Positions 59 through 59,083 of a stretch of DNA of 64,000 nt are shown one piece after another (positions within the stretch are counted from its first letter, which is position 1; each line of letters begins with the position of its first letter). The translations under genes and the position numbers were made by a program. The notes beneath the pieces were generated by a model. That model made no database searches, was not told where the DNA came from, and saw only the letters and a program-made list of their open reading frames with translations. Origin of the DNA: Amoebophrya sp. A120 (lineage: Eukaryota; Protista; Dinoflagellata); contig CAJINV010000002.1 of the NCBI GenBank assembly GCA_905178155.1, positions 5,327,709 through 5,391,708 on the forward strand. The letters are read 5' to 3'.

Positions 59-2475
59 GTTTTCTCTTGGGGTAGTAATTCCAACGGGCAGCTCGGCCAA
101 GGGAAAAGGACGCCGGACCAGCCCGTGCCCGGCGGAGTCGACGAGGCGAAGGACAAGCAAGCCTACCACGATTTCAAGACACTGAAAAAAAAGTACCTGT
201 TCCCAAACAAGATGCACTTGCCGCCCGGAAACGAGGGCGTCAGCAGGATAGGCAGCGGCAACGAAGGCACCTATATCAAAAGGAAAAATCCCCCCTCCCC
301 ATATCAAAACGAAGTTTCTCATGCAGGATTTGCGTACACAAATAAGATTTGTCTTGCTGGAGAGGAATGCAGCCCGATACTAAGCCTAAGTAGAGAGGCT
401 CTGGCCTAGGCGTCTAGCATGAGAGACGTCCGTGCTGTAGGCCCATCAGCATCACAAACCGCCCCCACAATGCTGCGGAGCTTGTGGAGTTGCCTTCTTG
501 CAAGACAGACGTGATTTGAGGTCGCAAATCAGCAGCGCAAATTTTCGGAAACATACCTTTTCGATATGGGGAGGGGGGATTTTTCCTCTTAATAACCTAC
601 ATTGTCACCAAGGGGGCGAAGTCCTACGCCTGCGGGTTGAACGGAGACAACCAACTCGGTATCATACATTGATCTGGAAAAGCATAAACTTCCTTTGCAT
701 CCATGTAAACCGTACGTTTATTTGATGCTCTGCTCAACACTTTTAGTACTGCATCCGCAAATGCAACTGAAGCAGGCCTGCTATCGCTAAGAGTGGTCGA
801 GTTGAAATACATATGTTCATTTCCTTGGTAACTCCAACCTCCCACAGGTCTTGGTAAGCAGCAACCGAACATCATCGAGACCCTGACCGAGCTGGTGGAA
901 CTGCGCGGCAAGCAGATTTCGTACATTGGGGGCGGGCAGCAACACGGGTGTGCCTGGGACAAAAACGACAACCAGGTGTACACGTGGGGCCGGAAGCCTT
1001 TTACCGGCATGAACGTACCGGAGACGAACGCTGACCGCGAGTTTGCGTCCCCGGTGAAAATCCCAAAGGAGGCCTTCGCGGGAAACCGCATCACGGACTT
1101 CAACAGCTCCAGCTACACCAACTTCGCGCTGACGGATATGCAAGAAGAAAAGATCGATCGTGCAGTTGTAGAGTTTTGGTTTTCAGTGATCTTCATGCGC
1201 AGCATGCCAAATGCCGGTCTCTTTCAACATGATGTTGGCCGTGCATTGTAGTGCCCGTGAAGAAAGCGCGTTTTTGCATGTTGCTATCTTCTGGTGCGCA
1301 TCATGACAGGGGTTGCTGTTATGCCATAAAGAATTTGTATATGCTTTTTCTCCGAGACGAAAAAACACTCTCGAACTTTTTCTCTCGGATAACGGAAAAC
1401 GGAGACGTGTTTGCGTGGGGTAGTGGGGAAATGTACCAGTTAGGCAACGTGCCGAAGGACGTCGACAACTACACGAAGGAAGAGAAAGATTTGATCGAGG
1501 GAAAGTCGGAACTCGCGCCCGCACTCATGCACGCGGAAAAGTTGAAGGACAAGTACGATTTTTTTGCGATAATTTCGTTGAAGGTCATTAAGTAGTACTT
1601 CACCATAAAGAACGCAATGGCGTCGAGCCCTATATGATCTTGGTTTTGACGTACACAAAAAAACTCAGGCACTGTGCATGGAGTTTTTTTTCTTCGTGAA
1701 GACGCTGGCTCTACTTCTCATTGATTTCTGCTTTTTTTCTCGGTTTAGGTTTAGGTAGGCCGCCACCGCTGCCGGCACGGGATGGCTGTCGTCGCGACCG
1801 TCTCACCTTCGATCTACGCCTTCTCCTGCTGCACAAGTTCGATCCGGAAAGGGTTTAGTTTAGGTTTCAGGGTTTAGGATATCCACTTTAAATCGACCTA
1901 GGTCGTTCTGCAAAAGTTGTGATTCCATCTATCCCACGAAAAAATAAACAGATACATTCTTTCCGTCGCTGGCGGTAGTCAGCACACGGTGATCCTGGCC
2001 TGGAACCCGATATGAACTGCAAAAGTATCGTACTCGTATAAATGCATGACAAATTTTCTCAGCATGAGAAATAAAATTTGTCATGCTGATTTACCTTACG
2101 AAAAATATTTGTAATGCAAGACCTGCATTTATACGAGTACGATACTTTTGCACAGGATACCCGAATCTTCCGGACAATTTCAAGCGTTCGCAGGCGGTGC
2201 TGGAAATCGAGCAGCAGGAGGATGTCTTGTCCTCGACTGCGCTCCTGAACGAGGAGTCCAACAAGCCGTCGCGGCTCGATTCGCCCTCCAAAATTGACCT
2301 GGAAACACGGTCAGAGATGAACATTTCGCCGCGGGCGAAGCGGCCAAAGCTCTGCTTCAGCCGGGACGTGGTGGAGAGGTGTCTGCAGGAGGTGAAAAAG
2401 CTGGAGAAAACAGTGTGGAACACCGGGCTGAACCGGGACAAGGCCATCGAAAATCTACCCTCGCTGTGTGATTGA
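59..2475 (+). CDS. RCC1/BLIP-II repeat protein, 3' part (multi-exon; probably starts upstream of the window)
   Basis: Spliced exons (~59-273, 600-658, 848-1136, 1397-1552, 1952-2010, 2165-2475) give RCC1 repeat motifs VFSWGSNSNGQLGQG, SYACGLNGDNQLG, GGGQQHG..VYTWG, LTENGDVFAWGSGEMYQLG and VAGGSQHT. Two GT-AG introns (659-847, 1553-1951) and three TIR introns. Confidence 0.85.
274..594. mobile_element. TIR introner, family B (poly-C TIR)
   Basis: TATCAAAAGGAAAAATCCCCCCTCCCCATATC ... GATATGGGGAGGGGGGATTTTTCCTCTTAATA, flanked by DR ACCTA; removal gives GTYIVTKGAKSY. Confidence 0.9.
1137..1391. mobile_element. TIR introner (diverged TIR)
   Basis: TATGCAAGAAGAAAAGATCGA ... TCGAACTTTTTCTCTCGGATA, DR ACGGA; removal restores LTENGDVFAWG. 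Confidence 0.8.
2011..2159. mobile_element. TIR introner, family C
   Basis: TATGAACTGCAAAAGTATCGTACTCGTATAAATGC ... GCATTTATACGAGTACGATACTTTTGCACAGGATA, DR CCCGA; in-frame on removal. Confidence 0.9.
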
Positions 2476-2528
2476 TGGACAAGAACTGTGAATCTCGCTG
2501 TGTAATTGATGGACAAGAACTGTGAATC
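2461..2528 (+). repeat. 34-bp tandem duplication spanning the RCC1 stop codon
   Basis: TCGCTGTGT(G/A)ATTGATGGACAAGAACTGTGAATC x2 with one mismatch. Confidence 0.85.
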
Positions 2529-56275: not shown

Positions 56276-59083
56276 ATGGCGCTCGCCGGCACGAAGACGC
56301 AAACTGCCCGGCTGACGCCGAGCGAGGCGGTCCGGCTAGACAAGCAGATTGAGCAGGTGCTTGGTATGAAAGAGCTGTCGGAGGCAGAGACGAAGGAGCT
56401 CGCAGCGCGAACAAGGGAGATATTAGCGGAAGAGTCAAACGTCGCAATAGTAAAGTGCCCAGTCACGGTTTGCGGCGACTTGCACGGCCAGTTCATAGAC
56501 CTAAAGGTATGTCTATGCAGTTTTTATCGTTCTTATGGTGACGGCGCTGGTGTTATGCGGTGATTCTGAATTATGCCAATGACAGATGCAGATCGTAGTT
56601 TCCATATGCATCTATAAAAATAATACGTTAACCTTAACGTTACATTACATTGAAAAGCAAAAGAGCAAACAAAAACAAAATCTTGTCAGGAACTGTTCAC
56701 AATAGTGGGGTCCCCGCCAGAGACAAATCTGCTGTTTCTAGGCGACTACGTCGACAGAGGCTACTACTCCGTGCTCACCGTGACGTTAATGTTCTTGTAC
56801 AAAATCAGGTACAAAACTTCTACATTCATGGTTCTTTTGATTTCGGCTCTATTCTTTACGTCATGATCGATGATCGCGTTCGTGATTCTGAATGATGACG
56901 CAAGGCAAAAACAAAACTTTGTCTGTTAACTACACATCATTTGCATGAAGATGAAGAACTGTTCTCGTCTGCAAGACTGAAAAAAAATTTTCGATAACCA
57001 ACAGATATCGCGACATGGTGTGCATCATAAGAGGGAACCACGAAAGCAGGCAAGTCACGCAGGTTTACGGCTTTTTCGACGAGTGCGTGCGGACATACGG
57101 GAGCAGCGAAATATGGAGGTAGAGTCTTTATTGTCCTATTCCTATGTTGAAGTTTTATTGCAATCATGGAAATTTATTTTTATACCCTGCAGCTTTTTTG
57201 TTTAGTTTTGAGGCGCGAATTGTTTGTGATGCATGAATGCAATCATGAAATAAAAACAGGTGTTTCACGGACGCTTTCGACGCGCTCCCCTTGACCGCCC
57301 TTATCGAAGACCAAATCCTGTGCCAGCACGGCGGCCTCTCACCAAGTATTGGAATTATTCAACATGCTCCGTTTTCTATTCGTGAACAATGACAACCACA
57401 CCCGGGCCCTCTTTTGCCATGTTCCAACAGATGAGAGTGTTGAAACGCGCCGGCTTTCTTCCGCGCTTCGTCCTCCCCGTGATGACCCGCGACCCGCGTT
57501 GTTGTGCTATAGTAGCCTGATCATGCTTGCTACAACTCTACTTCACAGCCGCACTTTCATCTTGCACGCGCTGCGGCCGCCCGATTTGTGTTTCACTTCA
57601 ACAACGCCGGCGCAAGCGCTACCATGGGCCAAAAAATCTCCTGGAGGTGCACAAACGTGCTATCCATATTCTGTTCGGTGAAGATGATGACCAAAGCATT
57701 CTTGCGCGCGCCCATTGCAACAGATGTTGCATTACGATTACCAATTCCCCCCGCGTACGTAGGTATGCAATCATGTGAGTTTGTCACTTTATTGAGTTCT
57801 TCTTCTCAGCGTTTTTTTTGCTTGATCATGGTAGGTCGTGTTTTCTATTGGTTATGGTACCCGGTGGTGTCGTGGAGGTCGTCGTCCAAACCGAAAGAAT
57901 ATCACTCGTACAAAATCACTCATGGTCATGACGGACACGCAGGATCATGCTGGGATAAAAATATTAGGAAGCTAGCGGCATCCGCACCAAATTTTTGCGA
58001 ATCCACGAAGATCTTCATGTAAGTAACTGTAATAACTGAAACTACTGTCAGGCATCGACACCCTGGACAATATCCGCGAATTAGACCGGATGGTGGAGGT
58101 ACCACACGAGGGGCCCATGTGCGACATCCTCTGGTCCGATCCAGATGAGAGGTGCGGCTGGGGCATTTCCCCACGAGGAGCGGGCTACACCTTCGGCCAG
58201 GATGTCAGCGAGACGTACTATTTTTTCTCACGCTTACGTTTCTGGATGAGGTGACCTTGAGGTTGTGATCAGATCACCAAATATAACGTTTTTGCAACGC
58301 GTCGTGCAGGATCTTGCACAACTGATCGTGTCGTGCGACGAGGACGTGTGGCTCTTTCTTAAGAAACAAACGTCTAGAAGTACAGGTACACTGTGAAAAA
58401 CAATATGCAGAAAACCACCGTTTTATCAGGTTCAATCATACTAACGGGCTCAAGCTGATCGGCCGAGCACACCAGCTGGTGATGGAGGGCTACACCTGGT
58501 CACACGAAAGATATCAACTGCAAAAGTGTCTAGGTCTGGAAGAGTCATGCTGTTTTTGCATGAGACAGAAGGTCTGGCATGGAAGCTATAGCATCACAGG
58601 TTTCGAGAAGCTTCCGCAATGCCGGAGCCGCATGTCAAATCCCCCATTTTGGTGACAGAAAGTGGGCAGCTGATGCTACCGATGCATCAGAGATTTTTCT
58701 GTTTTCTGAAATACGCATCACAAGTTTGTACTCTTCCAGACCCAGACATATTTGCAATCCATAAAAGAAACGTGGTCACCATTTTCAGCGCGCCAAACTA
58801 CTGCTACCGATGCGGTATCTTCTTGTTATTCTGATCTGCTTGTCATGCAGATAATTCTCTTTACCGAGTGCTACGTCGTGACTTTGAAAGGGCCTCCTTC
58901 TTGTGCAACACAAATTACCACCAAAATTGATTCACATGATCAGGTAACCAAGCTGCAGTCATGGAGATCGATGAGCATCTGAAATACACCTTGCTCCAAT
59001 TTGACGCGGCACCGCGAGAAACCCAGGACGGCGCACCAGAGCAGCTGCCGCCCGTGAAACGCATCCCTGACTACTTCATTTGA
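56276..59083 (+). CDS. PPP2C: Serine/threonine protein phosphatase 2A catalytic subunit (PPP family), about 8 exons
   Basis: Motifs [103 protein letters not shown] and C-terminal PDYFI*. Confidence 0.95.
58512..58763. mobile_element. TIR introner, family A (reverse complement of the 40041/32059 type)
   Basis: Family A TIRs, DR AAAGA; removal restores [16 protein letters not shown]. Confidence 0.93.

Follow-up and report, generated by a model that had tools for sequence, protein, structure and literature searches.

Introner elements of Amoebophrya sp. A120 have been described by Farhat et al. (2021, PMC7789003) as introns with inverted repeats of the form TAT, seven variable nucleotides and an A-run, flanked by direct repeats of 3-5 nt, falling into many families and having non-canonical ends. 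All of this, as well as the location in co-oriented genes, is shared by the elements studied here, which lie in a 64,000-nt stretch of the A120 genome (contig CAJINV010000002.1, positions 5,327,709 to 5,391,708 of the forward strand), referred to as the window. According to the available text of that paper at least 60% of Amoebophrya introns lack GT-AG, the route of their removal is an open question, and both the non-canonical ends and the idea of a hairpin are already in print. The legend of its Fig. 3 calls the splice positions variable relative to the hairpin and the border unknown, whereas in the window one register fits all readable joints. "Orientation" in that text concerns the orientation of genes, whereas here the orientation of the elements was tested, and the constraints on their ends turn out to be directional. 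The fixed lopsided register and the 5'/3' asymmetry are the new and testable part. In the available portions of the literature consulted (PMC7789003, PMC12130899, PMC9860276, PMC11282704, PMC12501133, PMC13326754, PMC2483917 and bioRxiv 10.1101/2020.10.14.339549; subscription papers are mostly outside this set) neither a fixed register nor directional end constraints are given for Amoebophrya, but the logos in Fig. 3 and Fig. S23 of PMC7789003 may display part of the register.

Two-way introners as such are already known. In Aureococcus and in several classes of Polarella glacialis (2, 3, 6, 7, 8 and 10) elements with terminal inverted repeats (TIRs) form introns in either orientation, as they do here, by means of mirror ends and canonical sites (available text of Roy et al., bioRxiv 10.1101/2020.10.14.339549). 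These introns depend on a G at +1 and on AG at their end, whereas neither is needed in the window, and the three simple two-way classes of Polarella are biased in orientation, whereas the ratio here is close to 50:50. Polarella class 12 has, as here, a 5-nt target-site duplication, a donor made of the last duplication base and the first element base, and the same register, but with canonical bases. The nonconventional introns of Euglena (Nomura et al. 2025, PMC12501133, as far as the accessible text goes) resemble those of the window in their origin from elements like miniature inverted-repeat transposable elements (MITEs), in inverted ends, in fixed offsets from a paired motif, in a longer 3' tail and in the lack of GT-AG. 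They differ in having CDG…CHG at +4/-8 and a purine after the 3' cut, as opposed to TAT…ATA at +2/-7 with no purine rule and dispensable end pairs. The Euglena signature (N3-CDG…CHG-N5-6 before a purine) is thus replaced here by N-TAT…ATA-N4, and the first base past the 3' cut in 36 window elements is A in 11, T in 11, G in 11 and C in three. MITE-derived non-GT/AG introns are also known from Fritillaria borealis, where the accessible accounts describe an altered U2-type spliceosome with U1 kept and a preference for the ends AG-AC or AG-AT, in contrast to the NT-NN ends found here (PMC11282704, PMC13326754).

Scanning the window for TAT…ATA ends combined with a TIR and a flanking 5-bp direct repeat yielded 35 matching elements, compared to 0, 1, 1 and 2 in four shuffled sequences. 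Every element named in a preliminary description of this DNA has this structure and interrupts exons on the + strand; its coordinates hold, and the element starting at 32868 stops at 33142. TAT, seven variable nucleotides and at least three A, together with the short direct repeat, are found as described for A120, with family D and a few others lacking the A-run. Similar copies are dispersed over unrelated exon sites and reach up to 97.9% identity to copies of a close relative. Three exact pairs of filled and empty sites were found between the window and the relative's locus L004, the orthologue of 19105-22195. L004 lacks the family D element at 21260..21501 and retains a single CGCGT, which means that insertion creates the 5-bp duplication; it also carries two elements absent from the window. 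The longest stop-free frame in the largest nested element (976 bp, 12690-13665) has 115 codons. These elements are MITE-like, presumably non-autonomous DNA transposons which insert into exons in either direction.

The site of the family A1 element at 20328..20598 is also occupied in L004 (reverse strand 1266-1531), with the same TCCCT duplication and the same orientation, but the interior of that element is far more diverged than the exons, which are about 97% identical. Either a parallel insertion or a replacement by another family member would account for this. A subterminal motif, GCAT[GCT]ACAA, and its complement are found repeatedly and in either direction. Of their 29 and 34 copies in the window, 20 and 21 lie inside 26 elements (7.8 kb); they are possibly transposase-binding sites.

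Removal from transcripts was read from contigs of the runs X1, X2 and X4, which belong to one sample and whose status as RNA is inferred, backed by seven GT-AG introns removed on the + strand. The raw RNA runs X7, X8 and X9 contributed 4, 5 and 0 matching reads. At least 26 elements are absent from these contigs, each as the element plus 5 nt, 19 according to joints or abutting pieces and seven according to exact length sums, and removal restores the sequence before insertion. In the RCC1-like gene the joint at the family C element 2011..2159 (CCCGA duplication) skips 154 nt. Host gene 2 (3337..5810, + strand), a 309-codon open frame once spliced, has joints skipping 267 nt at the A1 element 3641..3902, 272 at the A2 element 3977..4243, 165 at a diverged introner (5153..5312) and 333 at the family B element 5434..5761; the family D element 4830..5074 is bridged by the joint 4828-5079. 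The gamma-tubulin complex component gene (host gene 3, 6600..14300, + strand, 1496-codon open frame) shows joints skipping 228 nt at the family D element 7543..7765 and 104 at a short C-like introner (10647..10745). The length sum over 7128-15045, where the spliced model and contig 2 both have 4729 bases, adds the A1 element 11107..11368, an old introner (12231..12472), the A2 element 12670..13903 and the family C element 14037..14190, after which the contig resumes at 14192.

The longest series is found in host gene 5 (part, 31850..40340, + strand), which codes for a PKG-like protein with cyclic nucleotide-binding and kinase domains and has a 1274-codon open frame in this stretch. Here the spliced model of 31850-40035 equals the contig with 3763 bases, which accounts for the family E element 32059..32328 and the family B element 32389..32710. 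Abutting pieces delimit the A1-related element 32868..33142 (32861/33142) and the family C element 33832..33981 (33826/33982). Joints skip 331 nt at 34728..35053, 267 at 36818..37079, 257 at 37175..37426, 578 at 38640..39212, which ends in ACA, and 268 at the family E element 40041..40303. The old introners 36356..36714, 37549..37780 and 39625..39935, the last of which starts G-TAC, are bridged by the joints 36354-36719, 37546-37784 and 39622-39939, and the element 39292..39575 by 39290-39580. A B-like introner (38092..38412) is supported by the length sum and by a joint with GTGCG in between; a contig-supported micro-exon of 8 nt (38417-38424) separates it from a GT-AG intron.

Two of these introns are composite. 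The 976-bp element (12690..13665; TIR 20/20, TGTCT duplication) lies in the left TIR of 12670..13903, and a family A1 element (38928..39190), recognized by the TIR and duplication scan and by alignment, lies in the right TIR of 38640..39212, each about 20 nt from the end of its host. As both composite introns are missing from the transcript contigs, either the inner element is removed first or about 20 terminal bases are enough.

Fourteen of the 17 elements of the preliminary description are within the removed set, the exceptions being 20328, 21260 and 58512. The first two lie in a stretch covered by the contigs but have no joint among those listed; 21260 is supported by its exact empty site in L004. 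The third (58512..58763, family E) lies in the gene for a PP2A-family catalytic subunit (56276..59084, + strand), which has six canonical introns and gives an open reading frame (ORF) of 326 aa when the element is removed; the flanking exons then encode R254 and N255 of PP2A in direct succession. Removal of both orientations, as had been claimed, is therefore seen in the contigs for six of the seven named groups; in the seventh the contigs lack 40041 and 32059, and PP2A colinearity speaks for 58512.

That the members of each group lie in opposite orientations was confirmed for all seven groups by alignment of the internal sequence with the TIRs trimmed. Over whole elements the identity in opposite and same orientation is 0.87 and 0.65 for 2011 vs 14037 (family C), 0.87 and 0.63 for 3641 vs 11107, 0.88 and 0.65 for 3641 vs 20328, 0.87 and 0.63 for 3977 vs 12670 without its nested element, 0.85 and 0.63 for 5434 vs 32389 (family B), 0.84 and 0.67 for 32868 vs 36818, 0.82 and 0.63 for 40041 vs 58512, and 0.78 and 0.61 for 32059 vs 58512. 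Family D is the weakest group (0.69 and 0.64 for 4830 vs 7543, 0.72 and 0.64 for 21260 vs 7543), with core scores of 105 vs 25 and 115 vs 37.

The ratio of orientations, named in the preliminary description as a check, was examined in the relative, whose metagenome contigs scanned with one family-A motif gave at least 144 loci (251,686 bases); the counts apply to loci picked in this way and not to the whole genome. The gene strand was inferred by a codon model for which four window genes served as training set, junction and locus calls agreeing in 98 of 99 cases. Classified by family references and counted against this strand, the orientations are 38:43 (81 classified of 127 strand-called elements, out of 215) and, in a second count, 36:40 (76 classified of 109), and no family departs from an even distribution. 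Removal is independent of the orientation of the element. Because the TIR presents the same sequence at both ends, a flipped element begins and ends, in the transcript, with the same 30-45 bases as before and forms a comparable hairpin. The signals are therefore equal in both orientations, and a directional machine suffices.

Where the two copies of the duplication are mismatched, the transcript shows which copy is kept and the register becomes readable. A cut placed one base ahead of the left TIR and four bases past the right one (offset -1) fits 19 of the 19 readable joints listed and is the sole single register to do so; a cut at the TIR edge fits 17 and one at the outer edge of the duplication 12. 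The joints at 4830, 36356 and 39292 rule out offsets of -2 or further left, and those at 32868 and 37549 rule out offsets of 0 or more. The register is accordingly N-TAT…ATA-NNNN. A transposase is expected to cut at the edge of its element, and the register of -1 does not correspond to such an edge.

For the analysis of the ends we used 175 oriented elements, 140 of 238 from the relative's strand-called loci and 35 from the window, none of which has more than a single change in its terminal trinucleotides; 22033-22263, which L004 conserves in the manner of an exon, 22734-23116 (a weak call), the non-coding 42388 and the nested elements are outside this set. In intron positions +2T is present in 175 of 175, +3A in 174 and -7A in all 175. 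Fifteen elements are changed: changes of TIR position 3 are distributed 5:0 between 5' and 3' end, those of positions 1 and 2 are distributed 1:9 (Fisher p=0.002, post hoc), and the only 5' change of the latter kind creates a G-TG donor. Thus +4, -5 and -6 are free to vary while +2T and -7A are fixed in intron coordinates. Since the element scan is strand-symmetric, it can not produce such an asymmetry. Among the 26 removed elements the terminal trinucleotides are changed at 2 of 156 positions, compared to 13 of 130 in the duplications (p=0.001). Beyond the three terminal bases only TIR position 4 showed asymmetry (p=0.02 among 18 positions), and this was not used. At all three terminal pairs there are elements in which one base, on either side, has changed and its partner has not; none of these pairs must therefore form, and the ends are read as sequence. 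One element of the relative (L102:80-331) starts with C preceded by G and would give a GC donor, its strand call being uncertain.

How could such ends be recognized? Judging from the sequence we consider it probable that a relaxed major (U2/U6) spliceosome reads the mirror-end signals, with N-TA(T) as donor and with neither G at +1 nor AG needed. The last base of the duplication plus TAT would serve as donor, offering +2U, +3A and +4U as in GTAT donors, +1 being unconstrained; the candidate branch point is the A with which the terminal ATA begins (-7); the 3' cut would be placed by its distance from this A and not by AG; and the TIR stem likely helps to hold the ends together. This explanation is favoured because of the GTA donors of canonical introns, the +2T/+3A of published non-canonical ends, the register of Polarella class 12 and branch points known at -6 to -8. 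The 13 canonical donors of the window, seven from RNA and six from the PP2A frame, all have GTA, and 8 of 13 have +4T, with C, A and G at +4 also occurring as in the elements. They hence carry the same constraint at +2/+3 apart from +1, which supports the relaxed spliceosome, and the elements show +2U and this genome's +3/+4 consensus. In Table S4 of PMC7789003, as far as this source was accessible, the nine commonest non-canonical ends of A120 are all NT-NN and those of strain A25 are TT-NN, with inverted repeats starting TTA. Although the TIR of A25 differs, +2T/+3A recur, so the same donor bases are found in both strains. Yarrowia, Trichomonas and Giardia, whose branch points lie at a fixed distance from the intron end, have the A in the range from -6 to -8 by our count from the accessible reports. 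Amoebophrya has a near-complete spliceosome in which, according to the available text of PMC7789003, U1 was not found.

Several observations weigh against this explanation. The register is constrained by five joints only, all from contigs of one RNA sample, and a variable register could still accommodate the joints. The asymmetry comes from 15 changed elements, was noticed before the test, has no RNA check in 13 of the 15, and in the relative depends on strands called by the codon model. Of 175 elements only 63 have G at +1 (112 have another base) and only 19 end in AG (156 end otherwise), which would mean the loss of two contacts that are among the most conserved in the spliceosome; GT and AG occur together in 7 of 175, about as expected by chance. 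Of 13 canonical introns in the window only four carry A at -7, and YTRAY/CTRAY is not in excess in the elements (5 of 26 real, 4 of 26 flipped, background 0.15), so that the elements are not enriched in a conventional branch motif. The ends in Table S4 could have been shaped by aligner preference. Finally, the Euglena authors suspect a separate machinery for similar introns (PMC12501133, accessible text).

Such a separate, Euglena-like protein machine would bind the TIR hairpin, make staggered cuts at 1 nt (5' side) and 4 nt (3' side) from the base of the stem, ligate the exons and release a circle or a linear hairpin. We regard it as the main rival, possible though rather unlikely. It would require neither G at +1 nor AG, the hairpins that close the ends are strong whichever way the element lies (z −10.5 and −6.8), the Euglena code likewise has a longer 3' tail and yields circular products (PMC12501133, in part), and the apparent lack of U1 in Amoebophrya (PMC7789003, in part) would fit as well. 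On the other hand the end base pairs need not form, and a test for selection on the stem found no excess of G·U over A·C (22:31, 31:34 and 70:54 in the window; 209:202 in the relatives), the part of the TIR from position 8 to 16 even going the opposite way (34:55, p=0.03). TIR positions 4-7 match only to 0.44-0.61, and the introner at 12231, whose folding does not surpass that of shuffled sequences (z -0.43), is removed nonetheless. The preliminary description had suggested recognition through an RNA stem; a role of the stem is plausible, but neither the missing wobble bias nor the removal of 12231 lends it support. A Euglena-like machine also leaves unexplained that the 5' bases equal those of canonical donors at +2/+3 in this genome, +4 being free in both.

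The same description had also proposed a transposase-like enzyme, which would act symmetrically on the two ends of the TIR element, cutting and rejoining either DNA or RNA. The elements are indeed derived from transposons, with an exact 5-bp duplication compared to the empty site; their families are shared across strains, removal restores the pre-insertion sequence, and Gozashti 2025 reports, in the accessible portion, elements with integrase-like ORFs. Nevertheless we judge this mechanism very improbable: cuts at the TIR edge fail two joints and cuts at the outer duplication edge fail seven, the ends are constrained differently on the 5' and the 3' side of the transcript, and the accessible text of Farhat et al. 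(PMC7789003) reports no transposase found in A120. In addition, contigs of the DNA-like run X5 keep the elements, reading through them (for example 34728..35053) and through a canonical intron, and the 11 listed joints of the RNA contigs are all missing there; X5 is from another study and its contigs drop rare forms. Together with the single lopsided register and the directional end changes, X5 leaves symmetric or transposase-like recognition unsupported.

It is scarcely to be expected that each orientation is served by a regular branch point of its own, with canonical sites close by. The seven GT..AG elements at the register and the inverted and direct repeats in 15% of canonical A120 introns (PMC7789003, in part) would be in line with this, but 0 of 36 window elements allow exact GT/GC..AG removal and yet 26 are removed exactly; for the readable joints the observed non-canonical ends rule such sites out. 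Equally improbable is self-splicing of the group II type via a bulged A near the 3' end. The invariant A at -7 recalls the branch position of group II introns, but the elements measure 99-360 nt, have unrelated interiors and are removed in either orientation, and no Rfam family reached the gathering score in the window, conserved catalytic RNA domains not being found. A bulge-helix-bulge endonuclease was dropped as a candidate: its geometry requires complementarity between exon and intron, and a direct repeat is present instead.

Returning to the relaxed spliceosome, a single register with a directional end code offers precise targets, namely the predicted branch base, tolerated and lethal mutations, and the state of U6, in which loss of m6A favours +4U. 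If the explanation is true, gene models would have to be corrected, and the fit between transposon and splicing machine would be a route by which insertions become silent anywhere. More specifically, the spliceosome, reported without U1, might have dropped G at +1 and AG altogether, reading U+2/A+3 and the A 7 nt from the end and measuring the 3' cut from there; to this version we give somewhat less than an even chance. If it applies, any TAT…ATA transposon with a 5-bp duplication would be a perfect intron anywhere in exons and in either direction, allowing genome-wide invasion.

Besides the genes mentioned above, another kinase gene on the + strand of the window is a host of introners. Further introners can be recognized by sequence alone at 274-594, 1137-1391, 23506-23784, 28867-29225, 30694-31000, about 31105-31318, 50430-50711 and 63630-63881, the last one terminating in ACA, and elements of the same type lie in apparently non-coding DNA at 42388-42668 and about 40616-40766. 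The stretch 22033-22263 has a TIR and a 5-bp duplication, but its first ~160 bases (the limit of L004) are kept to about 97% with only 3n indels, and its frame is open up to a stop in the right TIR. Either an old shared intron or partial exonisation may lie behind this.

Other repeats were noted outside the introners. A GC-rich region at 24780-27000 contains tandem-like repeats of ~80-90 nt (D16, D20) between coding-like regions, and a stretch of 1.4 kb at 45916-47318 is flanked by 36-bp direct repeats. An open frame of 462 codons (43741-45129), close to direct repeats of 30 bp that lie at 43755 and 45508, has what we take, by eye, to be RNase H-like motifs, and it is likely a retroelement fragment.

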